From a virus (lineage: Duplodnaviria; Caudoviricetes): a stretch of DNA of 64,000 nt. The first letter of the stretch is position 1. Each line of letters begins with the position of its first letter. This document shows, in pieces, positions 4,133 through 42,664 of the stretch. A program made the position numbers and the translations under genes. The notes under the pieces were generated by a model. It did not search any database and was not told the origin of the DNA. It was given only the letters and a program-made list of their open reading frames with translations. The stretch lies in the IMG/VR virus record IMGVR_UViG_3300020576_007607, positions 5,448 to 69,447 of that record; one strand, written 5' to 3'.

Positions 4133-4828
4133 TTAAAAATTCAAATCGAAAAAATAGAATTCCTTATCACCCTTAACCCTGAAACTGATATAAAGACAGT
4201 TCCATTTCATCTTATGTTGAGGCAAATCCTTCCTGAACTTAGCCTTATTCATATCTTCTATTGAGAAATCAGAAAAGTCAATTGTGGTCCGATATCCATA
4301 TTCATTCCCTTCAACATCATATTTGTATGACAGACTGATATATGGATCGAGAGTAGCGTATTTTTTCTCAAATTCACCCAAAGAAGATTTGATGTTATCT
4401 GGTGACAGGGTTTTCACTAGTTCATGAAACTCAGAAACCGCTTCCTCTGGTTTTGGAAATTCAATCGATTTCAGATTCCAAATTTTGGCTTCCTCATCCA
4501 CTATTTTACCTTCATCCTCAAACAGCCTCTTTATTCTCTTGGAAGGTTTCTCCAAATCATATTCACCCAAGTCGCCCCTTTCCATCAGCCTTGATTGGAC
4601 ATATCCGACGTTTTTTGACGTGAACGCCTCCGTCAGAAAGAAGTCCACGGCTTGGTCTATATCAGAGAACTTGGTCATACCGACATGATAAAAATTATCA
4701 TACTTATAGCATTTCAGTTCATCATACCAAGACGAAATACTTCCCTTGTGTGGGAACTGAAAGCTTATTCCCGATTCAAGGATTTCCTTGAGAGATTCTT
4801 TTTTAATCATCGCAACCCGATTCATCAA
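4133..4828 (-). CDS. hypothetical protein
   Basis: 231-aa ORF, stop/start overlap with upstream gene. Confidence 0.7.
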   Translation of the reverse strand: MMNRVAMIKKESLKEILESGISFQFPHKGSISSWYDELKCYKYDNFYHVGMTKFSDIDQAVDFFLTEAFTSKNVGYVQSRLMERGDLGEYDLEKPSKRIKRLFEDEGKIVDEEAKIWNLKSIEFPKPEEAVSEFHELVKTLSPDNIKSSLGEFEKKYATLDPYISLSYKYDVEGNEYGYRTTIDFSDFSIEDMNKAKFRKDLPQHKMKWNCLYISFRVKGDKEFYFFDLNF

Positions 4829-5226
4829 ATCTTAGATTTTACAAGTTCGGAAAGATGTTTCTTGTCGACAGGAAGATCAGCGAACGCCTTCATTACCGCA
4901 CCTATGTTGCTCGCGCCAGATGCGATGACCTCGTCTAGTTTGGCGATGATTTCGGCTTCCGACATCTGTTTCGGAAGATATGTTTCGATAATGGCGAGTT
5001 CTTCCTTTATCTTCTCATCATTGGTAAGCTTGATGGTCTCCTTCATGTTCTTGGCAAACTTGTTTAAGAGCTCCATAGATTTTTCATCTGAAAGGGCGTC
5101 AACATTCAGGACCTTTTTAAGGTTCTGCATCTCACCCTTAACCGTACCCAGAAGAGTCTTGACTTCCATGTTTCTTGACTTGAATGCGGACATGAAGTCC
5201 GTTTCAATGCGTTTTTCTATTGTCAT
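4825..5226 (-). CDS. GatB/YqeY-domain protein
   Basis: IETDFMSAFKSRN..KTLLGTVKGE..EELAIIETYLPKQMSEAEI..NIGAVMK pattern. Confidence 0.88.
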   Translation of the reverse strand: MTIEKRIETDFMSAFKSRNMEVKTLLGTVKGEMQNLKKVLNVDALSDEKSMELLNKFAKNMKETIKLTNDEKIKEELAIIETYLPKQMSEAEIIAKLDEVIASGASNIGAVMKAFADLPVDKKHLSELVKSKI

Positions 5227-5247
5227 AATTTTTTATTTTCCCTGTTA

Positions 5248-5388
5248 TTATTTACGGTTTGAAAGATAATAAATAAAATTAATCCCCGAAAGGAATAAAC
5301 TTATTCCACCTGAAACATAACTCGACTGAAAGATCTGATAAATCCCAGAAACCAGACAGATTAACGATAGTAATAGATTAAATTTCAT
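5248..5388 (-). CDS. 46-aa two-TM membrane protein
   Basis: MKFNLLLSLICLVSGIYQIFQSSYVSGGISLFLSGINFIYYLSNRK; overlaps the upstream small ORF stop. Confidence 0.5.
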   Translation of the reverse strand: MKFNLLLSLICLVSGIYQIFQSSYVSGGISLFLSGINFIYYLSNRK

Positions 5389-19414: not shown

Positions 19415-19633
19415 ATGAAATTCGACATAACAAAACCGGCATTCGCCGTTTACATAAACGTAAAATCATTACCCAAAGCAAGAGCCGAAGAAGCCATCGA
19501 AAAAGTGATGGTGGAATTAAAGACCGAAGACGCCAACATGTTTTTCTTCCCAATAACAGAAATGGACGAGGGATCGACCAGAATAGAGTGCATCTACAAC
19601 CCGACAATAAACCAAACAATCTACCGACCATGA
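19415..19633 (+). CDS. hypothetical protein
   Basis: 72-aa ORF after uvsX. Confidence 0.6.
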   Translation: MKFDITKPAFAVYINVKSLPKARAEEAIEKVMVELKTEDANMFFFPITEMDEGSTRIECIYNPTINQTIYRP

Positions 19634-19830
19634 GACAGATGATCTTGAGAATACTCCAGGAAAGGAACATGGATTTCAAAAACCATGAACTCCTTTACAA
19701 GGCTGGACTCGATAACATAATCAGCAACATCGAATTCTATTTCGACAAGCCGTATACCTGTGAATCGGTTTTTCGGGAGCTTTTCCGAAGAGGAGTGATC
19801 AACGAGATAAGAAAAACCCAATCAGACTGA
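19630..19830 (+). CDS. hypothetical protein
   Basis: ATGA overlap with the previous stop. Confidence 0.55.
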   Translation: MRQMILRILQERNMDFKNHELLYKAGLDNIISNIEFYFDKPYTCESVFRELFRRGVINEIRKTQSD

Positions 19831-19842
19831 TTGGGTTTTTTT
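19812..19842. terminator. bidirectional intrinsic terminator
   Basis: AAAAACCCAATCAG-A-CTGATTGGGTTTTTTT at a convergence point. Confidence 0.8.
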
Positions 19843-20226
19843 AATTGTTATAAATCTTGTCCGATATAGAAGGATGATATTGGATATGTTGACCATGAGA
19901 ATTCCAGAAATGCTCAGGACCTGCTTCGCAAGTCCTGATGGTAGGAGAATGGAACTGATGTTGATAATAAAGGAAACACCAATCAGAAACATATAAATAT
20001 GAGGATTCTTTATTATCCATCTCTTCAGTTTGGGAACATCAATCCTTGATCCCATGAGCATCCTTATAGATATGTCCCTCTTACATTGGACACACATGTC
20101 ATAATAATCCTTTTCATCTGATGCCTTTATAATCAGAACACTGTCCCTTACCACCTCGTCCATGGTGTGGATTTCGGACTTGCAGTTGTAACAGGCGAAT
20201 CCCTTTTTCAGTTGATAGGATATCAT
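19822..20226 (-). CDS. Zn-ribbon membrane protein with internal tag
   Basis: CYNC/CVQC, RDISIRMLM, two hydrophobic helices. Confidence 0.65.
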   Translation of the reverse strand: MISYQLKKGFACYNCKSEIHTMDEVVRDSVLIIKASDEKDYYDMCVQCKRDISIRMLMGSRIDVPKLKRWIIKNPHIYMFLIGVSFIINISSILLPSGLAKQVLSISGILMVNISNIILLYRTRFITIKKTQSV

Positions 20227-20310
20227 CTGTCTTTTTTTTGGATTCTCTCGCGGAAAGATAAATCCAAAAAAATGACAGGACAGTAAAAAACAAATGTATC
20301 AGAATAAATG

Positions 20311-20808
20311 TCATATCAATTTAAGAAGCTTTGTCAGTTTGATGTCCCTTTCCAACTGCTTGTTCATGACCATCCTGACGCATTCAGGACCGAATCCCGT
20401 ATCTATGGATGTGGGAACCGTCAGACGTTTCCCGCATTTCCCGCATCGTCCCGAGTGGTATATCTCGATGAATTCCGGAAGGGCGGTCTTAGCCGGTTCA
20501 GTATCGGTTGCGGGACTGACAATTGTCTGGATTCTTTTGAGGACCCAATCGAAAACCTTCACAGACTGGGCGTCCGCCCCAATCGGGGACTTAGGTGAGT
20601 GTCGGAACCTATTTTCCGATGTTATCAGACCGATATACGTGTAGATATCCGGCCCTGTAAGGACATTGACATAATAGATGTCCGACTTCTTGTGCTTGAC
20701 AACCTTATACGTGAAACGGTTTTGGGTGTTGGTGTTGACGAACGTCATGAACGCCTTGCCTGCCAATATGAAATTCAACGCCAAATCGTGTCTGAGTATC
20801 CCTGTCAT
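20311..20808 (-). CDS. DUF6011-like Zn-finger protein with C-terminal tag RDIKLTKLL
   Basis: CGKCGKRLTVPTSIDTGFGPEC; TATCTTTG at 20825-20832. Confidence 0.75.
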   Translation of the reverse strand: MTGILRHDLALNFILAGKAFMTFVNTNTQNRFTYKVVKHKKSDIYYVNVLTGPDIYTYIGLITSENRFRHSPKSPIGADAQSVKVFDWVLKRIQTIVSPATDTEPAKTALPEFIEIYHSGRCGKCGKRLTVPTSIDTGFGPECVRMVMNKQLERDIKLTKLLKLI

Positions 20809-32423: not shown

Positions 32424-35400
32424 TTAGAAGAAACTCGAACCTCCCGAAGCAGCACCGCTTGTATCGATGGTGGCACTTGCCATAGACGAATAAATCGATG
32501 ACGCTGCCGCTCCTAATGGAAGAGCCGTTATGCTACCCAGGGATGTCGCGTCCAATCTGAACGATACCGCCGACAGATAGTTGTTATAGACGAAATCAGT
32601 CGAGAAATTTATGAACGGAGCCGTCGCCTTCCAAGGAGCCATTATCGACTTGTCGACATTCGACTCGGTGGTGTATTGGAAGAACGGAATCCTATCAACC
32701 TCGTACAGGGAGACATTCGACAACCTAACTTCCCTTGGGGATGTCGCCCCTGTGAAAAATACATATAACCCCAAATCAGGCTTGTTGAAATAATACTCTT
32801 TACCATTACTTCCCGATGCCGCGTAGTTTATAAAGTTTGATGGACCACCAAATAGAGAATACGTCGCCTTGGTGTAAGAAGTATAAACATAGGTGGACGG
32901 ATAATCTATATAAGAAACCCCAACATCAATCATCGTATACCGTTCGGGTAAAACAGTCACATTTGTCGGGTTATCCAATTTGAATCCATCAGAATAAGTG
33001 GATGTCAATTTGAACGTATCTTCCGAAATAGCCGCCTCATATTCAAATGACGTTGATGTTGTAAGGGAAAATACCCATCCGTCATTAATGAAATTATCGG
33101 TCCCTGGAGGGTCCAACAAACTACTAAAAGCGTTTGTGAAATTACCATCATTTGGCAGGAACTGATCCAATATCGTATACTTTGTTCCAAGACTCAAGGT
33201 TCTTAATGTGCTCCTGTTACCCTTTCTGAAAACTGATGTGCTTGATAGGATATCATTAGTTATGTATCCGTTCAGATCAATCCTTGATGTTCTCGACGGA
33301 GAGGTGGCTGCCGCGAACCAAGCGGCATCACTATCACTCTGTGTTGACCATATTGACCCATCTCCTATGTTTGTCATGGATGTAGATGTCCAGTTGATAT
33401 CCATCCAAGACTGATATGTGAACTGATAAGGTCTCGCCACGTTGTTGTCCCTGAAATCCATATTCTGGACAAGACCCGTGTGATACGAATAGGTTATTCC
33501 GCTGTATGTGTATGAATCAATTCCGGATATGAAATGGCCACCGTCGAACTTACCATCCACCCAATAAGTCTTATCCATTTTGGTTATGTAAGGATATCCC
33601 TTGAACCACCCGCTGTTCCAAACACCAGTAAAATACCCGTTCAGGAAGACACCAGTCATCCACATGTTCTTGGTGACATAAACTATGTGATCCGAAGAAT
33701 CGACCTCAATCCTTTTCAGCGGGAAATTGTTGATGTATTCCACTATAAGATAATCGCCTCCGACCACAATCACACGGAACTTGTTCCACAACAGGACTCT
33801 TTTCTCGTCGATGTCTATTCCGACAAGGTTTCCGCATGTGACCCAATTTCCGACCCTGAACTGGGACAGTCTGGTGATGTCGTTGTCGACCACGGTAAGG
33901 AACATTCTGTGTGTGGTCTTGTTGAGAGAAATGTAGTTCGCCGATGTGTTCACTATGAACTTGGTAACTGTAGTATCGTCTCTCCAACCGTTATTCCAAA
34001 CTCCGTTCTCCCATATTCCGGATTTGAAAACACCGTTTCCGAATCTGGTGGAAACCCTCTGATAAGCGTTATTGACAGGATTATCCGATGTTGCCTCAAG
34101 AACGGTCAGTGTCGTCGGTAGTGACGCGGTTGAACCTACACTCGCCGAAACACCAGGATACAGCTTATTGTTGTAGGTCGGATAGTAGTTGATGTCCTGC
34201 TTGTCGACACTAATCGAAAATATGTTAGTCGTCAAACTTGTTGAGGAATAAACTTTAAATTTAAGATTAGAAGGAGAAGGACCTGTTTCAAAAGTAAAGG
34301 TCTGTATATTACCAGGGTCTCCAGACGGCCATATAAAGGGTCCTCCCCCACCAGCTCCTGGGGGCCATACTCCTATCCGACTTGATGTCGATCCAGAACC
34401 ATAATCTATATTCAGAATAGAGGTAAGGGTGGACGACAGTGGGACTCCAGATATCAAAGATCTAAAAGTCACAGTATATTTTGTGTTAGGATCGAGAGAC
34501 AAGGGAGAACTTGCTGAGGCAACAGTCAGTTCTCTAGAGTTGGATCCGTTCGTTGTCACCTTCAAATTATTCAAAAAAACCGTTCCAAACGGACCCGAGT
34601 AAGTCGAAGAGAACGACCATGCGGTCCCACTAAGAGACTGAATCAAGTCAGTCCCGATCGGATTTGATGCAAGGCTTATATTCTTCACAGAAACAACACT
34701 CCCAGTGAAGGCATTTATTATGTGGATGTTGTTCGAAGACGCGGCCTGAGCCACGTTCGACATCAACAGGGAAACCTTCTTCACGACCTGGTTCGATCCG
34801 GTAAGAGAATCGACCCCATAAGGAGATCCGTCCCAGTTTCCGTTTCTCCACAACCCGGTTTCCCAATAGATGTTCTCGGCAGTTCCGTAGTTCCACGTAC
34901 CGTTTCTCCATATGGCACCCGACATCAATCCGTTCTGGAAAACCCCCTTTTTCCACTCAGACATGTAAAACGAACCCGATGCGAAGACACCGTCGTTCCA
35001 AACCGAGGATTGGGTGTTGAACGAAGAGTTGGCGGTAACCCCCGCGAATTGACGGTCAACAAACGGATTGAAAACACCTCCGTCGAAAGTCCCCCGATTG
35101 AAACTTCCTCCCAACCAAAGGGAATTGTTCAAATTTCCCTGTTGATGGCTGAACGTACCCGACAGCCATAGAATGTTGTTGAGCTTCGCCTGATTCCTCT
35201 GGATCACTATGTTGTTGCCCTTATAGAGATTTGAAGCCTGAACCTGATAATCGTTCATCATGGGAAGGCTTTCAGCAACCCATCCGTCCTTCCAGAGACC
35301 GTAATAGTCTGTCCTGAACGAATCGGCATACAGAAATTCGGGAGATGATTGTGTTGTCGTGAGGACACCACTTCCGTTGAAGGATCCGTTCCTGAACAGA

Positions 35401-38400
35401 CCGTATCTCCAGAACCTACCCTGGAATATGCCTCCGTTGAATTCCCCATCGAACCAAACCGAGTTGGTCGCGGTAGATGCGTTTCCGAACTCACCACCGT
35501 TGAATCTTCCGAATTCCCACGCGTAGTCAGAAGCCACATTGGAAGACTGTGTCGGTGAGACATTTCCGATTCCGTAATACGACGTGAATTTTCCCCCATT
35601 GAACTTTCCGTTTTTCCACCTTGCCAGTCGCATAAACTTACCACCGTTGAACTCCCCGTCATACCATATGCTTTCGTTTGAGGAAACCGTCCCGTAACTG
35701 GTGAATTCCCCGTTGTTGAACTTTCCGTTGTACCAATAAACCGATCCGCTTCCTCCGACAACCGCGTTTTCAACCACCCCGTCCTTCCATACGGTGTAGG
35801 TCGCACTGTCGGTGACCGGATCGAGGAATCCCATTGTGGTGACCTCAGGCTGAAGATTGATGAGACCGAGTATGCCGTTGTTCCACAGTCCCCCATACCA
35901 GGTCGAATTGTAGAATCGTCCGTTGTTGAAAGTCCCATTGAGCCAAATCGACTTCTCGAAATAACCCAAATCGAATTTCCCATCCATCCACAGTTTTTTC
36001 CTCGGGGACAGATCGTAGTCAAACATCGTCGGCGTCGGATTCGAGGAATTGATGAAATATCCACTGCTGAAAGTTCCTGTCAACCAAGAAACGTTGTTGG
36101 CTACTCCGCTTCCGAATTTCCCCCCGTTCCATATCGAATTGTAAACCAATCCCCCCGTAAACGTATCGTCGACGAAATGGGACTTATATACCAATCCAGA
36201 CTGTATGTCGTTTCCGGTACGGCTGAACACCGTATTTACAATCCTCAGCTTTTCAACATTCGTGAAGGTTATGTTCTTGTCGGTGTTGTCAAATTCCGTA
36301 TTCGAGAATTTTGTATTCCTGAAAGAGGTATTTTTGAAAAGACCCCCGTTTACAGTGGAATTGCTGATAATAAAATTATTGATCGACACATATGAGTTCT
36401 GGGTGGCCCCAGGAACGTAATAGGAACCACCTAGCAAGTTAAGTGTTCCGATGTCAAGATCCGAATCCTTTTTCTCTATTAGGAATTTGGAATATGAAAA
36501 TGACGAAACTGGAGGTGTCGAATAGGTCACTCCGACAATCTTGTATCTACCGTCAAGATTGACCGACGTGGCACCATAAACGGTGGAATTGGTGGCATAG
36601 GTTATAGAGTTCAACCATATGTAATCACCAACCTGGTTATCAAAGTCATCAATCCGATAATCGAAATTCAGAGGGGAATAATCCGTGAATACAGAGATCC
36701 GATTCGGATCAAATGAAGGCTCAAGATTGAGACTTCCATCCGCAACGAATGATGTCGATGACGACGGTCTCAGAATCCTATTGGATTGGTAGTTGATATT
36801 GCCGCCGCTTACCCACTTGGAACCCTCAAAAACACCCTTCCGGAAATCACCGTCAGTAATGAGACAATTCAAAAAGACATTGTTGACATTGTCCAATCCT
36901 ATGGGAGAAAGATTGTAATAGCTCGAATACGTCACTTTGGTCGAGTCGAAAGACGAGACATAAGCGGTTTCCAAGTCACTGTAGTAATAGGCAAACTCCC
37001 TACAGTCTATATCTATGGACGCGTAGATGAAAGGGTTTGGAATTACGGAGTTCACCCCGTTTCCACCACTGTCCCTCGTGACAACCACCTTATACCTGTT
37101 ACTTGACTTGTTCTTGAGACTGACCTTTATCCGGTCAGAACTGAACTGGTCGAGATATGAATCCAAGACAAACCTGGTTTCTATGGGAAGAAGAACCTGT
37201 TGGTCCTTATCCAAGGATGAAAGTATGAACTGCTTGTTTATCCTAGTTATGTAGAAAACATCACCTATTACCAATTTCTCCAAATCCGAATCGGAAATGT
37301 AAAGCTTCAAAATACCTCTTATCGTGGATGATGGAAGAGGAGATCCCGAAATCTCATCGTATGACCACAGGTCGGCCCCCAAAATTTTTATACCGCTGTT
37401 GGTGTTGAATTCGGAATTTCCCGATGCCGAAGATCTTATCACCTGAGAGTTTATAAGTTTGGTTCCCGATATGTTGCTGTTGTAAATGTTGGTGTTTGTC
37501 AGAATGGCGTTCGAAACCTTTGAATCGAGAAAATCACACAGGAAGAACTGTCCGCCGTTTACGGTGATCGATTGGGATTGGGTGATTCCGTAATAGTTGT
37601 CCAAAGCCCCAAATCCAGATGAGATTCCAACATTGCAGTTTTCAAAGTTGCCGTTGTTGATTGTTCCAGCCCTGAACGTGGAATCTATCATGAAATTCAA
37701 TCCCCGACCGATGTTGTTGGAAAGATCCACTGTCTGAACTATCTTTCCGTTTGCCAGGCTTGCCCTGTAGACGGTCTCGCCTATCGAGGATTTTGAGTTC
37801 ATTATTCCGGTTATCCAATCCACATTCAGCATCAGTCCAGAATTCCAAGAACCACCAGTCCATCTCACAGATTTCATGTCTGTTCCGAAAACACCATCAT
37901 TGTGGACTCCCGAGAACCTGCCCGACCTGAAATTCAGTTTGGAAATCATCGGAGTCTTGAATTTCGATTCTATCTTCCAACCGCCGTCGTACCGGTACGA
38001 AACCCTTTGCTTGAAAAGCTGTCCGTTGTAAGTGAAATCCTCACCCACGACATAGATAAATCCACCGGTATAGTCGGGATTCGCCGACACCATCTTGTTT
38101 ACGGAGAATTGTGAGGAAATATCCCTCCAAATCGAAGAATCATCCTTGACCCAGAATCCCGGAGTCACTGAACTGAAAGTGCCTGACGAATATATGATCT
38201 GATTGTTGTACAAGGATACCGTACCCCCAACCACCGAATACTCCCCAAAAAATTGGGACCACACCCCATTCGAGTGAACAGAGAAGGATCCTGTCTGCAG
38301 GGGAACCTGCAGGCCATCGACATAGTCGAACTCCCTTTGGCTCGAAACGTGGGTGACACGTATGTAGTCGGAACCTCCGATCTCAAGCTCCTGATATGGA

Positions 38401-38735
38401 AGAATACCGGTGTAGTCAATATCAAGTATGATCCTGCACCCGTCAACCCCCAAGACGCGATACCCGTCAGTGAAAACCGCATACTTGTCCTGTGAGATGT
38501 ATGCGTTGGAATCATAGTTCCCATTGATCACAAACACCCTGTCACCAACGTTGAAATTGGTTCCGTATTCGGTATAGAACACGGTTTTTACAAAACCTCC
38601 GATGTTGACCGACTCAACATAGTTGAGAATTTTCGACGTGTAGAATTTGGTGTTGGTCCGGGAAACCGATTTCAAGTAGGTCGGGTCCTGGGACAGGACG
38701 GAATTGTTCAGGATTGATGGGATAACGGAAGCCAT
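32424..38735 (-). CDS. 2103-aa probable virion structural protein with W/F-x-x-G pentapeptide repeats
   Basis: Size, Gly/Asn/Ser/aromatic richness, repeats such as WLNGTFNNGRFYNSTWYGGLWNNG; TAATATATA at 38758-38766. Confidence 0.7.
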   Translation of the reverse strand: MASVIPSILNNSVLSQDPTYLKSVSRTNTKFYTSKILNYVESVNIGGFVKTVFYTEYGTNFNVGDRVFVINGNYDSNAYISQDKYAVFTDGYRVLGVDGCRIILDIDYTGILPYQELEIGGSDYIRVTHVSSQREFDYVDGLQVPLQTGSFSVHSNGVWSQFFGEYSVVGGTVSLYNNQIIYSSGTFSSVTPGFWVKDDSSIWRDISSQFSVNKMVSANPDYTGGFIYVVGEDFTYNGQLFKQRVSYRYDGGWKIESKFKTPMISKLNFRSGRFSGVHNDGVFGTDMKSVRWTGGSWNSGLMLNVDWITGIMNSKSSIGETVYRASLANGKIVQTVDLSNNIGRGLNFMIDSTFRAGTINNGNFENCNVGISSGFGALDNYYGITQSQSITVNGGQFFLCDFLDSKVSNAILTNTNIYNSNISGTKLINSQVIRSSASGNSEFNTNSGIKILGADLWSYDEISGSPLPSSTIRGILKLYISDSDLEKLVIGDVFYITRINKQFILSSLDKDQQVLLPIETRFVLDSYLDQFSSDRIKVSLKNKSSNRYKVVVTRDSGGNGVNSVIPNPFIYASIDIDCREFAYYYSDLETAYVSSFDSTKVTYSSYYNLSPIGLDNVNNVFLNCLITDGDFRKGVFEGSKWVSGGNINYQSNRILRPSSSTSFVADGSLNLEPSFDPNRISVFTDYSPLNFDYRIDDFDNQVGDYIWLNSITYATNSTVYGATSVNLDGRYKIVGVTYSTPPVSSFSYSKFLIEKKDSDLDIGTLNLLGGSYYVPGATQNSYVSINNFIISNSTVNGGLFKNTSFRNTKFSNTEFDNTDKNITFTNVEKLRIVNTVFSRTGNDIQSGLVYKSHFVDDTFTGGLVYNSIWNGGKFGSGVANNVSWLTGTFSSGYFINSSNPTPTMFDYDLSPRKKLWMDGKFDLGYFEKSIWLNGTFNNGRFYNSTWYGGLWNNGILGLINLQPEVTTMGFLDPVTDSATYTVWKDGVVENAVVGGSGSVYWYNGKFNNGEFTSYGTVSSNESIWYDGEFNGGKFMRLARWKNGKFNGGKFTSYYGIGNVSPTQSSNVASDYAWEFGRFNGGEFGNASTATNSVWFDGEFNGGIFQGRFWRYGLFRNGSFNGSGVLTTTQSSPEFLYADSFRTDYYGLWKDGWVAESLPMMNDYQVQASNLYKGNNIVIQRNQAKLNNILWLSGTFSHQQGNLNNSLWLGGSFNRGTFDGGVFNPFVDRQFAGVTANSSFNTQSSVWNDGVFASGSFYMSEWKKGVFQNGLMSGAIWRNGTWNYGTAENIYWETGLWRNGNWDGSPYGVDSLTGSNQVVKKVSLLMSNVAQAASSNNIHIINAFTGSVVSVKNISLASNPIGTDLIQSLSGTAWSFSSTYSGPFGTVFLNNLKVTTNGSNSRELTVASASSPLSLDPNTKYTVTFRSLISGVPLSSTLTSILNIDYGSGSTSSRIGVWPPGAGGGGPFIWPSGDPGNIQTFTFETGPSPSNLKFKVYSSTSLTTNIFSISVDKQDINYYPTYNNKLYPGVSASVGSTASLPTTLTVLEATSDNPVNNAYQRVSTRFGNGVFKSGIWENGVWNNGWRDDTTVTKFIVNTSANYISLNKTTHRMFLTVVDNDITRLSQFRVGNWVTCGNLVGIDIDEKRVLLWNKFRVIVVGGDYLIVEYINNFPLKRIEVDSSDHIVYVTKNMWMTGVFLNGYFTGVWNSGWFKGYPYITKMDKTYWVDGKFDGGHFISGIDSYTYSGITYSYHTGLVQNMDFRDNNVARPYQFTYQSWMDINWTSTSMTNIGDGSIWSTQSDSDAAWFAAATSPSRTSRIDLNGYITNDILSSTSVFRKGNRSTLRTLSLGTKYTILDQFLPNDGNFTNAFSSLLDPPGTDNFINDGWVFSLTTSTSFEYEAAISEDTFKLTSTYSDGFKLDNPTNVTVLPERYTMIDVGVSYIDYPSTYVYTSYTKATYSLFGGPSNFINYAASGSNGKEYYFNKPDLGLYVFFTGATSPREVRLSNVSLYEVDRIPFFQYTTESNVDKSIMAPWKATAPFINFSTDFVYNNYLSAVSFRLDATSLGSITALPLGAAASSIYSSMASATIDTSGAASGGSSFF

Positions 38736-39079: not shown

Positions 39080-40168
39080 ATGTCAACCTTTAAAGTTTCA
39101 AAGCAGAAAATATCTCTGTTTACTCATTCCAACGCCGATTCTCTGGTACTCGGAAAGGTCGGATCATATCAGCTCGTTGTCCAAAAAGGACTTTATAACG
39201 ACGGAGATGAAGTCGTTTTCGCACCGGAAAAATCCGTCCTTACGGGACAGATCAAGACCGAGTTCGAGAAATACCTGGTCGGTCCCAATCATGACAGGGT
39301 TAAGGCCGTACGCCTTCGTGGGGAAATATCGAGCGGGATAATCATACCCAAAGATCTGGTTCCCGATTTCGACCAAGTCCCGATTGATGAGGACATTTCG
39401 GAAAAGCTCGGGATTTCAAAATACGAACCACCGATTCCAGCACAACTTGCCGGAAAGGTCAAGACATTCGACATGCCGTTTGTCGGACACCACGACTGCG
39501 AACACGCGGGAGTTTATGTCAACGAACTTATCGACGGGGAAAGAGTTGTCGTGACCGAAAAAGTACATGGGTCCCAATTCATACTCGCACACAACACCGA
39601 TGCTGGAGATACCATAATCTCCTCAAAGGGTCTTCTGAAAAGGGGACTTACCATCGAGGAGTCCGACTCCAACCTTTATTGGATGGCATCCAAAAACGAT
39701 AAGGTGGTCGAAAAGATCCGACACAATTGGACTGGAGGAATCGTACAGGTATTCGGGGAAGTCATACCCATCCAGACAGGATACTCCTACGGACAGAACA
39801 AGCCTACGGTGAGAGTTTTCGATATCAGACTGAACGGTGTTTCAATCCCGTATGACCAGGTTCCGCGGGATTTCAGGGATCTGTGGGTTCCTGTTATTTT
39901 TGACGGGACACTCGAACTTGACAAAAAAGAAGTGGTTATCTATTCAGATCCGGAAAAGGGAATCCTGAAGACCAAGACCGATTACCTGCTTCCGAAGGCG
40001 ATTGTCGACCTCTGCAAGGGAAACGAAACCGTTTCGGGAAAATCGGAACACATCCGGGAAGGTGTGGTTCTCCGTCCGTACATAGACCGTCTGGCCACCG
40101 ACGGGACACAGATCAGGCTGAAGATAATCAATCCGGCCTATAAGGAATCGGGCGAGGAAATCAATTAA
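39080..40168 (+). CDS. RNA ligase, DRB0094-like
   Basis: N-terminal OB-like segment (HSNADSL...VVQKG..RLRGEISSG); TEKVHG, FGE, FDI, EGVVLR, LKIINP. Confidence 0.85.
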   Translation: MSTFKVSKQKISLFTHSNADSLVLGKVGSYQLVVQKGLYNDGDEVVFAPEKSVLTGQIKTEFEKYLVGPNHDRVKAVRLRGEISSGIIIPKDLVPDFDQVPIDEDISEKLGISKYEPPIPAQLAGKVKTFDMPFVGHHDCEHAGVYVNELIDGERVVVTEKVHGSQFILAHNTDAGDTIISSKGLLKRGLTIEESDSNLYWMASKNDKVVEKIRHNWTGGIVQVFGEVIPIQTGYSYGQNKPTVRVFDIRLNGVSIPYDQVPRDFRDLWVPVIFDGTLELDKKEVVIYSDPEKGILKTKTDYLLPKAIVDLCKGNETVSGKSEHIREGVVLRPYIDRLATDGTQIRLKIINPAYKESGEEIN

Positions 40169-40224: not shown

Positions 40225-40446
40225 ATGGTAGTTTGTCTTCATGATTTTAAAATAGAAAGCTTAGGATTTCATCACCTTTTCATAAAAGGACACAAATATG
40301 CCTTCAGATTGGAATATTTTGATTTCATCTGTGACGAGATGATAACCATTTACGTCAACAACATACCGATCACAACATCCACATTCAAGGAAAATTTCAT
40401 CCGTCTCGAGGACTGGAGACACCAACAGATAAACAAGGTAATATGA
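40225..40446 (+). CDS. hypothetical protein with tag RHQQINKVI
   Basis: Operon context. Confidence 0.6.
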   Translation: MVVCLHDFKIESLGFHHLFIKGHKYAFRLEYFDFICDEMITIYVNNIPITTSTFKENFIRLEDWRHQQINKVI

Positions 40447-40988
40447 AAGCAAAGGAAATGTTCGAGGGCGACATCAGACACTTAAAACTCCAAATGATAC
40501 TTGGTGAAACACCAAACCTCGAACCTGACATAAAACGGATCAAACGGGGTGATAATTGGATTCTCAACAAGCCTTACTGGAAATGGATCGAAAAGTGGAA
40601 GGGTGAATCTGTGATAACAGGATCACTTTCACTACACGCCTTCGGCCTTCTCGAAAGGACCCCGACAGATCTTGATTTTCTGGTCAGAAAAGTCCCAGAT
40701 GGGATTACCCTATATCAAAACATATATATAGGAATGGAGGCAGAGGTGGATCTGTTGGGTTATTTTCCCGACAGATCGGCAAACATGAACATCGATTTTT
40801 TCCAACTGAAAGAATCGGATCAGATAATCGAAAAAGACGGGTATCTTTTTCACCATCCCTACCAGATAATGGAATGCAAGATGAGGATCTCGGAAAAGAG
40901 GTGGAACGATTCAAAGGATTTTTGGGACATCCACAGCTGTCTTAAAAAATTAATTCCCAATTATCAAGATCCGTTTGCCAGAAAATAA
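40443..40988 (+). CDS. nucleotidyltransferase-like protein
   Basis: ITGSLSL..FGL.ER..TDLDF; K..D..D at the C-terminus. Confidence 0.7.
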   Translation: MKAKEMFEGDIRHLKLQMILGETPNLEPDIKRIKRGDNWILNKPYWKWIEKWKGESVITGSLSLHAFGLLERTPTDLDFLVRKVPDGITLYQNIYIGMEAEVDLLGYFPDRSANMNIDFFQLKESDQIIEKDGYLFHHPYQIMECKMRISEKRWNDSKDFWDIHSCLKKLIPNYQDPFARK

Positions 40989-41011: not shown

Positions 41012-41386
41012 ATGTCTATAAAAAGATTCGAAATAAGCAAAGAGGAATATAAGAAATCCCATTTAACTAGGGCGGAATATCTAATCATCAGATATAAGGA
41101 CTATATCAGAAACTTGTCTTTCATGTCGGGACTTACTCCTGATGTCATTGAGTTGGCATTCGGAAAATCCGATTTCAAATATCAGGGGGAATACAATTGC
41201 GATTGTTGGGGTCTTCAGTTGGATGGAGTTAGATTTATGATTATATCAGCAGATGGTAGAGGAACCACTGTCGAAAGCGAAACTGGGAATGTCGATATCA
41301 TAAAAAAATTCTATAAAGAAATTTTGGACATTTTCCTTAAAATAGACAACCCGAAAATTGAAACTTTAAAGATTTTCCTAAAATAA
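41012..41386 (+). CDS. hypothetical protein with N-terminal tag (MSIKRFE)
   Basis: TAATATATA at 40986-40994. Confidence 0.65.
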   Translation: MSIKRFEISKEEYKKSHLTRAEYLIIRYKDYIRNLSFMSGLTPDVIELAFGKSDFKYQGEYNCDCWGLQLDGVRFMIISADGRGTTVESETGNVDIIKKFYKEILDIFLKIDNPKIETLKIFLK

Positions 41387-41516
41387 TATATATTTGCATC
41401 ATGAATCAGTTTCAAAAAATATCCAAATCGGCTCAGCCTTGAGCTTTCTTGTAGTTTCAGTCCGCAACTATCTGGACTATTCATATCCATTATGAACAAA
41501 AACAAAAACTACAAAA

Positions 41517-42203
41517 ATGAAACAAGAATCAATAATACTCGAAATAAGAGCCGGAGAAGGCGGAATCGACGCCAAACTCCTGGTCAAGGACCAACTCAAC
41601 ATCTATATCAAATCGGCCAAAACCCAAGGGTTCGAATTCAAGATAGCCGAAGAAAGGGAAGCCTTTTCCTCAATCTGACTAACTGGAAAAGGTGTCAGGA
41701 AATTCTATTCCAACGAATCGGGATGCCATCGTTGGATCAGAATCCCACCGACCGAGAGAAACGGAAGAACACAGACCTCGACCATCACCGTCGCCATCAT
41801 AGATCCGAACCAGGAATTCAAGGTCAGTTTCGACCGTAAGGATGTCGAAAGGAAATACATCCGAAGCGGCGGAAACGGGGGACAGAACGTGAATAAGGTA
41901 TCAAGCTGCGTCCAACTGTTCCACAATCCGACAGGAATCCAAATAAAGTGTCAGGATACCAGAGACCAAAAGAAAAACGAGGAAATCGCCTGGAAACGTC
42001 TTGAGGACAGAATCGCGGAAATCCAAAGGAAATCTTTCGACGAGTCCGTATACAACCAAAGGTTCGACCAAATCGGATACTCACAGAGATCCGACAAGAA
42101 AAGAACATACAGGATAAAGGAAGATATGGTGATAGATCATGAAACGGGAAAAACAACAACCTTCGGAAACATAACCAAAGGTAGAATAGAACTCCTCAAA
42201 TAA
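41517..42203 (+). CDS. RF1-like peptide chain release factor lacking domain 1, with in-frame UGA at codon 54 (41676-41678)
   Basis: [12 protein letters not shown] before the stop; [26 protein letters not shown] (PxT) and [12 protein letters not shown] after it, same frame. Confidence 0.88.
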
Positions 42204-42205
42204 TA

Positions 42206-42231
42206 AAAACCCTCTCGATTGAGAGGGTTTT
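42206..42231. terminator. bidirectional intrinsic terminator
   Basis: AAAACCCTCTC-GATT-GAGAGGGTTTT. Confidence 0.85.
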
Positions 42232-42664
42232 ATATTTTATGGACACCAGGTTCTTCCGATCCGTCGAATGTTCTTCCCAATTTCACCATACAAGGGAAAT
42301 TGCCGATCTCATGGGCCGATTTGACACCGGTAATCCATTTCTCTGGTATGTCACCAACGGTATAACAAACCCTTATTTTTGGATCATCTATACCGAGACT
42401 TTCGAACATCGAGACAAATTCCTGATGGATCTCATTTCCGATCAACCCGATTGTTTCGGGAGTGGCGACGCATCCGGGAACTATCCTGAAATCGATCGGA
42501 ACAATCAGATCCTTTTCGAATCTTGAATTCAGCCCGTCAATAAGGGATTTCAATTCCGATTTCAAATCCTTGGGAAGGATATTGGTTAGAGCGCAATGGG
42601 AAAGCCAGTGGAGTCTGTGACTCCTTGGAAAACATGGTTTGGCATAAAGGATTCCAACATCCAT
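42230..42664 (-). CDS. hypothetical protein
   Basis: Operon context. Confidence 0.6.
   Translation of the reverse strand: MDVGILYAKPCFPRSHRLHWLSHCALTNILPKDLKSELKSLIDGLNSRFEKDLIVPIDFRIVPGCVATPETIGLIGNEIHQEFVSMFESLGIDDPKIRVCYTVGDIPEKWITGVKSAHEIGNFPCMVKLGRTFDGSEEPGVHKI

Follow-up and report, generated by a model that had tools for sequence, protein, structure and literature searches.

The window, by which we mean the whole 64,000-nucleotide stretch of viral DNA analysed here, carries at positions 41517-42203 (+) one release factor reading frame of 228 codons, which opens with an ATG at 41517, is interrupted by a single in-frame TGA at 41676-41678 (codon 54; context TCA ATC TGA CTA ACT) and is closed by a tandem TAA TAA at 42201..42206 (+), the true terminator of the frame. 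TAA is likewise the final stop in 60 of the 78 listed release factor genes of relatives. The 53 codons before the internal stop (41517..41675, +) encode the start of release factor domain 2 (EIRAGEGG...), as indicated by the sequence, by Pfam, by the alignment to RF1 and by dN/dS, and codons 55-228 (41679..42200, +), which need readthrough for their translation, encode the remaining part of domain 2, domain 3 with its GGQ motif, and domain 4. The internal stop together with the C at its +4 position (41676..41679, +) is referred to below as the gate. Beyond it lie the tripeptide PPT, an RF1-type PxT 'anticodon', at codons 77-79 (41745..41753, +) and the GGQ catalytic motif at codons 121-123 (41877..41885, +), which is invariant in the family alignment. 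A bidirectional intrinsic-terminator hairpin with an 11-bp stem (42206..42231) is common to the release factor gene and the convergent gene at 42230-42664 (-).

No Shine-Dalgarno (SD) sequence precedes the ATG at 41517. The 130-nt gap 5' of the gene contains the element TATATTTG (41389..41396, +), which fits TAnnTTTG, the consensus of the Bacteroidota -7 promoter element, and which we regard as a lead only; weak sigma-70-like matches were also found 5' of the gene at 41358-41394, and the scan returned three promoter-like sites where 2.3 were expected, a difference that is not significant. Two other arrangements of the locus were rejected. A split gene with reinitiation would have to use the first in-frame start after the gate, at 41889, which is already past the PPT motif, and a domain 1 encoded separately upstream was dismissed because the ORFs at 40443-40988 and 41012-41386 have no Pfam match and no resemblance to domain 1. 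Further upstream, an RNA ligase gene at 39080-40168 (+) (Pfam RNA_ligase PF09414 and a PHA02142 OB-fold domain) lies 1.35 kb 5' of the release factor gene; its homologue in genome LR745206 is ~25 kb away from the release factor gene of that genome, so the proximity of the two genes is not conserved. A 2103-residue ORF at 32424-38735 (-) has no Pfam match and shares 29-45% identity with sequences in LR745206 and LR756502.

The read-through protein is an RF1-type factor without domain 1

The read-through protein matches Pfam PCRF (PF03462, 2e-19) over residues 3-92, a span that includes codon 54, and Pfam RF-1 (PF00472, 4.8e-29) over residues 100-208, and its alignment to residues 104-322 of Thermus thermophilus RF1 needs no frameshift. 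Homology therefore spans the stop, as the initial annotation had proposed in describing a single TGA flanked on both sides by release factor sequence in one frame. With the NCBIfam models the protein scored 190 bits for prfA (189.8; cut-off 400), 130 bits for prfB and 72 bits for PrfH, all of them under cut-off, and the prfA match covers only model positions 103-332 of 347. Domain 1, which comprises the ~105 N-terminal residues of a normal RF1, is absent from the protein, and this absence had escaped the initial annotation, as had the two changed decoding residues described below. An AlphaFold model built on 40 relatives reached a mean pLDDT of 91 and resembled domains 2-4 of ribosome-bound RF1 (TM 0.89) more closely than PrfH (TM 0.65). 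In this model codon 54 falls within a beta-strand (residues 50-57) of domain 2, and the residue at this position varies among ungated members of the family (R, K, E, S, C or L), so that any residue inserted there should be tolerated.

The PPT tripeptide aligns with the PVT of T. thermophilus RF1 and is of the PxT type, as opposed to the SPF of RF2; it is present in nearly all of the 76 distinct family members described below, three of which have SPT. At the positions of Gln181, His193 and Thr194 (T. thermophilus RF1 numbering) the alignment places Ile (41736-41738, +), Gln (41772-41774, +) and Thr in the window protein. Gln181 is retained in most of the family and is replaced by I, V, L, N or S in the clade of the window gene, and His193, which is universal in RF1 and RF2, is Gln in the window protein and its clade. 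In the family table the gate codon, TGA or TAG, shows no link with the decoding residues. The PxT motif had initially been taken to mean UAA/UAG specificity; the RF1-type nature of the tripeptide stands, and the reading of UAA and UAG by the window factor is best treated as a prediction and not a certainty, since the changes from Gln181 to Ile and from His193 to Gln make its codon specificity uncertain. Specificity in the window's clade may also have been narrowed (UAA-only) or altered in other ways.

TGA is a normal stop elsewhere in the window and in related genomes

The window is derived from a 69,447-base linear IMG/VR virus record that is ~13% complete according to CheckV. Its proteins match those of the 'Mahaphage' genomes LR745206 and LR756501/2/3/4 (634-735 kb; Al-Shayeb et al., 2020), which are predicted to infect Bacteroidetes (Al-Shayeb et al., 2020). 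ORFs of at least 100 codons span 96% of the window, and its crude gene set ends 47 times with TAA, 21 times with TGA and 18 times with TAG. Seven of the TGA-ended window genes finish 0-16 codons from the ends of their homologues in related genomes, which bears out the view that UGA is a normal stop in the rest of the window and that the gate is therefore specific to this gene. TGA closes 16-24% of genes in LR745206, LR756502 and a 211-kb IMG/VR contig, the three related genomes that were scanned whole. TAA is the commonest stop: it closes 55% of the genes of the window and 66-73% of those of the relatives. Under code 11 the three related genomes have coding densities of 0.89-0.94 and the window's contig one of 0.95. 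The comparison of the other window proteins with the three related genomes, over ~28,000 aligned residues, brought up practically no in-frame TGA, and a scan of 1.56 Mb for conserved in-frame TGA codons, which covered sites flanked by 40 open codons on either side and matched by a homologue in a second genome, returned only the release factor gene.

The search for a UCA-anticodon tRNA, which had been suggested as a possible source of UGA suppression, came out negative: the 69-kb contig contains no tRNA gene that we could find, and ARAGORN detected no such tRNA among the 60, 47 and 68 tRNAs of the three related genomes. A suppressor tRNA was thus rejected for the contig and the three whole related genomes. 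Only ~13% of the genome of this phage is in hand, so that such a tRNA could lie elsewhere in it. Genome-wide recoding of TGA (code 4/25) was rejected as well, given that TGA is a normal gene end, that no other conserved in-frame TGA was found and that no UCA-anticodon tRNA was detected. The proposed coupling of the gene to a phage-driven shut-off of RF2 was not borne out either, with no suppressor tRNA in the contig or the three whole genomes and no candidate RF2 inhibitor identified.

Three further observations concern UGA in these genomes. The tRNA-Trp(CCA) genes of LR745206 (343033-343104) and of IMGVR_UViG_3300037087_000760 (91320-91391) have a U11-A24 pair in the D stem, which we take to be the configuration made by the Hirsh UGA-suppressor mutation (G24A) of E. 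coli; from this resemblance, the pair might raise UGA reading by the phage tRNA-Trp(CCA). LR756502, scanned whole with ARAGORN, has no tRNA-Trp. In LR745206, the gene at 275009-275914 (-), a homologue of the contig gene at 4302-5255 (contig positions) just upstream of the window, contains one in-frame TGA within a 309-residue alignment of 47% identity, and by its sequence it is possibly another read-through gene or a broken one. Within the window, three successive ORFs at 19621-20808 (-) (165, 134 and 66 aa) share one frame with only TGA between them; their co-phasing is probably due to chance, because the first ORF ends where its homologues end.

The gate is conserved across diverged phages

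Two scans of IMG/VR added 84 loci, and the removal of duplicates and two incomplete copies left 76 distinct genes. As many as 69 of these 76 genes (~91%) are gated, 45 by a stop that calls for in-frame readthrough and 24 by a +1 frameshift, and seven are ungated. The gate codon is TGA in 57 of the gated genes, TAG in 10 and both in two; TAA is never used. A stop at codon 54 occurs in 33 distinct sequences from independent assemblies (31 TGA, 2 TAG), among them the 634-735 kb phage genomes LR745206, LR756501 and LR756502, and the other recurrent gate sites of relatives are codons 39-41 and codon 46. All four of the closest GenBank genomes have an in-frame TGA in the release factor gene; in three it occupies codon 54. 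In the maximum-likelihood tree the window gene belongs to a 13-member clade (SH-aLRT 98), all 13 members of which have a readthrough gate, and over the whole tree the type of gate switches at least 10 times.

For 12 fairly close pairs of genes (synonymous difference 0.2-0.7) dN/dS was 0.04-0.29 before the stop and 0.07-0.20 after it. These values show purifying selection on either side of the stop, and those after it indicate that the sequence past the stop is translated. As a control, bacterial genome contigs were scanned with the same profile that had been used for the relatives. None of the ~60 full-length bacterial RF1 genes recovered (PAT/PET/PKT, with long open frames upstream) has an internal stop, and 17 of the 19 PPT-type genes from the same scan are gated. 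It had been left to homologues to decide between a conserved stop and a pseudogene or sequencing error, and the 33 distinct relatives with a stop at codon 54 decide for the former; a recurrence of this kind is explained neither by chance nor by sequencing error. Taken together, these data provide good support for the conclusion that the stop is real, conserved across diverged phages and a gene-specific gate of programmed readthrough.

Several relatives show additional features around the gate. The release factor gene of LR756501 (L003) and that of an IMG/VR contig (L094) differ at synonymous sites by 0.07 in the first 53 codons and by 0.63 beyond them, and this step in the sequences suggests recombination at or near the gate in this pair; in several other pairs, too, the part before the stop has diverged less at synonymous sites than the part after it. 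Three IMG/VR contigs (L103-L105) have TGA at codon 46 and TAG at codon 54 in one gene, so that two different stops would need to be bypassed. In L109 and L110 a partial second copy of the N-terminal part (positions 481-675; query residues 8-77, 47% identity) is located ~1 kb upstream of the full gated gene.

Leaky context and RNA structure at the stop

Of the 33 sequences with a stop at codon 54, 24 have C at +4 and nine have A, and none has T or G, while C follows only seven of 178 true TGA gene ends in four genomes (Fisher p 3e-18, uncorrected for phylogeny). Where the residue right after the gate is Leu, its codon is always CTN; TTA and TTG make up 52-67% of the Leu codons of the three related genomes. 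Selection thus maintains C or A, which make for leaky termination, at the +4 position of the gate. A C at +4 weakens bacterial termination, above all at UGA, and tRNA-Trp tends to misread UGA followed by A (PMC5289835). The weakness of the UGA-C context noted in the initial annotation is thereby backed by the literature and by its retention in this family. According to Karow (1998), as cited in PMC7918605, UGA readthrough in Bacillus subtilis rises from 6% to 19-54% in prfB mutants.

The window sequence has a hairpin of its own 12 nt past the stop (z -2.25), which the relatives do not share, and RNAalifold found no consensus structure after the stop among the 13 members of the clade; synonymous sites around codon 54 are unconstrained. 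Selenocysteine insertion was rejected on the same alignment of 13 clade members, in which RNAalifold found no conserved stem-loop directly 3' of the UGA. Since a stimulatory RNA structure is not conserved, readthrough may be inefficient, in which case the gate could act as a simple attenuator.

Frameshift-gated and bacterial relatives

In 24 relatives the frame is shifted by +1 exactly at a CTT-stop, which is CTT-TGA in 15 cases (mostly followed by C) and CTT-TAG-C in nine. Nineteen of these genes, mostly on GC-richer contigs, have the gate at codons 40-41 (TGA in 15, TAG in 4), mostly with an SD-like element a few bases before the CTT and in most cases in the form GGAGG(N3-4) CTT TGA C. The other five, from AT-rich relatives, have an SD-less TGY CTT TAG C gate at approximately codons 54-56. 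Bacteroidia ribosomes normally work without SD pairing, and prfB frameshifting in these bacteria is inefficient and SD-independent (PMC10798248); the occurrence of SD-containing and SD-less gates may therefore track the use of Shine-Dalgarno pairing by the host. The distinction drawn initially between this gene and the +1 frameshift of prfB holds for the window gene itself and fails for the family, in which close relatives have an SD plus CTT-TGA-C +1 gate 14 codons upstream. In view of these relatives, readthrough is one of several interchangeable gates.

A short PPT/PPN-type factor with an SD and a CTT-TGA/TAG +1 gate was also found in MAG contigs of Myxococcota (Kofleriaceae/Haliangiales; loci L179, L175, L192, L195, L197, L199, L202, L205 and L228). 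In the Kofleriaceae MAG (L179; 6.26-Mb contig, 1896243-1899903) the gene lies amid ordinary cellular genes (SnoaL-like, DUF1697, alcohol dehydrogenase), and the short release factor family is hence not restricted to phages. A doubly TGA-gated PPT factor typical of the huge-phage clade is present on a 170-kb contig binned as Methanobacterium sp. (L171; PLXT01000115.1), which is probably derived from a phage and was placed in an archaeal MAG by a binning error.

Discussion

Our analysis indicates that the locus probably encodes an RF1-type class-I release factor that lacks domain 1 and whose synthesis is gated at codon 54, a leaky UGA-C, by programmed readthrough. In the best reading of these data, we infer that synthesis of the factor is inversely tied to the capacity of the cell for termination at UGA, and hence to RF2. 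At codon 54, host RF2 would compete with a near-cognate tRNA, most likely tRNA-Trp(CCA). Where RF2 wins, a useless 53-residue peptide would be released; where RF2 is scarce or busy, the ribosome would read on and produce the 228-residue factor. Going by its PPT tripeptide and overall similarity, the factor is predicted to terminate at UAA and possibly UAG, and the handling of UAA by the phage factor would free RF2 for UGA, which would close a negative-feedback loop on termination capacity. The gate might in addition put a ceiling on a product whose overabundance may be harmful. Relatives would achieve the same with a second UGA, located at codons 39-46, or with a CTT-TGA or CTT-TAG-C site for +1 frameshifting. 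A sensing role of this kind, and the purpose it would serve, are suggested by the family as a whole; the TAG gates of ten members with the same PPT motif are not covered by a simple rule that the gate senses RF2. More broadly, and with somewhat less than even confidence, we propose that the short PPT-type factors of huge phages and some Myxococcota may constitute a third class-I lineage, whose interchangeable gates (UGA or UAG readthrough at two sites, and SD-dependent or SD-less +1 frameshifting) would sense RF2 (or RF1) capacity and act as a phage-borne termination homeostat.

An unlikely alternative is autoregulation as in prfB, in which a factor of broadened or shifted specificity would read its own UGA (or UAG) gate and, at high level, stop its own synthesis. 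Such a mechanism would fit the CTT-stop +1 gates of 24 relatives, 19 of which, at codons 40-41, mostly copy the self-sensing prfB cassette. It would also fit the odd decoding residues (the family-wide PPT, with SPT in three members, and the replacement, within the window's clade, of Gln181 by I, V or L and of His193 by Gln), and an omnipotent factor would account for the combination of TGA and TAG gates with one motif. However, the proline at the first position of the tripeptide speaks against it, since under the tripeptide rule, reportedly formulated by Ito et al. in 2000, this residue, a hallmark of RF1, bars G from the second position of the codon. Moreover, the prfA score (190 bits) is well over that for prfB (130 bits), and TAA is never a gate, though it is the codon that the factor should read best.

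Scarcely less unlikely is the possibility that the gate is a plain attenuator, whose leaky stop would hold a toxic-prone factor at a few per cent of initiations without any sensing. An excess of release factors is harmful in B. subtilis, strongly for RF2 and mildly for RF1 (PMC12421855), and the lack of a conserved stimulatory RNA element and the location of the gates at tolerant, variable positions are in line with simple attenuation. Yet weakness of the promoter or of the start site would suffice for this, and the repeated exchange between readthrough and prfB-like frameshifting, the avoidance of TAA and the RF-sensitive contexts point to the sensing of termination.

A timed switch of the genetic code, in which a UGA suppressor or RF2 antagonist encoded elsewhere in the phage would open the gate as part of a change from a standard to a TGA-recoded programme, appears improbable to a slightly greater degree. 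Recoded phages, for which a 'code-change module' has been proposed, do carry RF1 or RF2 together with suppressor tRNAs (Borges et al., preprint), the part of this phage genome that is available is small, and the 47-68 tRNAs of the related genomes include a few with odd anticodon loops. Against such a switch stand the absence of a UCA-anticodon tRNA from the three related genomes scanned whole, the share of their genes that end with TGA, the lack of any other conserved in-frame TGA in the 1.56 Mb searched and the fact that the RF1 gene of the recoded Jade phages is itself written in the standard code (Borges et al., preprint). Finally, a pseudogene or an assembly or sequencing error, for which the division of the frame by one single stop might be taken to speak, has a negligible probability and was ruled out by the conservation of the codon-54 stop in 33 distinct sequences from independent assemblies and by dN/dS, with purifying selection past the stop, intact catalytic motifs and a gate in 91% of the family.

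Recoding control of a release factor is known only for RF2 (prfB), and here an RF1-type factor is gated in ~90% of its copies. If the gates operate as proposed, this family would be the first case of an RF1-type factor under the control of programmed readthrough, and also the first under that of a prfB-like frameshift. If the gates sense the termination capacity of the host, huge phages would use feedback to adjust a core step in the translation of the host. The family would also provide a comparison set for the determinants of stop-codon leakiness, for SD-independent frameshifting in Bacteroidota and for the extent to which a class-I factor is able to function in the absence of domain 1 and with altered decoding residues. 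Because gene callers split or miss gated genes, inventories of phage translation genes under-count them.

Comparison with known release factor systems

Full-text searches of the literature returned no paper on phage release factors with in-frame stops or frameshifts, and none describing leaky-stop gating of an RF1-type factor. PrfH (RF-H), which works with RtcB on damaged ribosomes, is similar in length to the window protein and also lacks domain 1. However, the window protein scores only 71.7 bits against a PrfH cut-off of 166.65, its model fits PrfH less well than RF1 (TM 0.65 versus 0.89), and in contrast to PrfH it retains a PxT-type decoding loop. RtcB was not found among the 10 genes neighbouring the release factor gene, and a PrfH-like rescue system was ruled out on profile score, fold and neighbours.

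The release factors of recoded phages, RF2 in the TAG-recoded Lak and Agate phages and RF1 in the TGA-recoded Jade phages (Borges et al.), are likewise class-I factors encoded by phages, and the Lak phages and the closest relatives of the window belong to the same broad 'Mahaphage' clade. In the recoded phages, however, a stop is recoded genome-wide with the help of suppressor tRNAs and the release factor genes are reported to be in standard code, whereas the window phage has a standard-code genome in which only the release factor gene holds an internal stop. Unlike the window factor, the factor of Lak-C1 is complete, domain 1 included, and has an SPY motif; its gene is free of internal stops over the stretch examined (L168:301-1380).

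RF1 (prfA) is the best match in both sequence and structure, and it shares with the window protein the PCRF and RF-1 domains, a PxT-type tripeptide and the GGQ motif. The window protein differs from it in the absence of domain 1, in a score of 190 bits against a cut-off of 400, in the Ile and Gln at the positions of Gln181 and His193 and in the stop gate of its gene, which is absent from the ~60 canonical RF1 genes.

Among known systems, the nearest is bacterial prfB (RF2), with its autoregulatory +1 programmed frameshift at an SD-like element and CUU UGA C. By comparison with prfB, the gate of the window gene is passed by in-frame readthrough, both sides being in one frame, and has neither a CTT nor an SD; it lies in domain 2 (codon 54, or codons 39-46 in relatives), while that of prfB lies in domain 1. 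Furthermore, the product is of RF1 type (PPT) and so, by its motif, is not predicted to read its own UGA, and TAG serves as a gate in 10-12 relatives of the window gene. In contrast, a survey of 12,753 bacterial genomes (2025) found that TAG is never the gate of prfB and that prfA has no programmed frameshift (PMC12421855). Despite these differences, each of the two is a class-I release factor gene that is broken near its beginning by a UGA with a weakening C after it, the prfB cassette recurs almost unaltered in relatives of the window gene as GGAGG(N3-4)CTT TGA C, and in both systems the output depends on how well ribosomes terminate at the internal stop.
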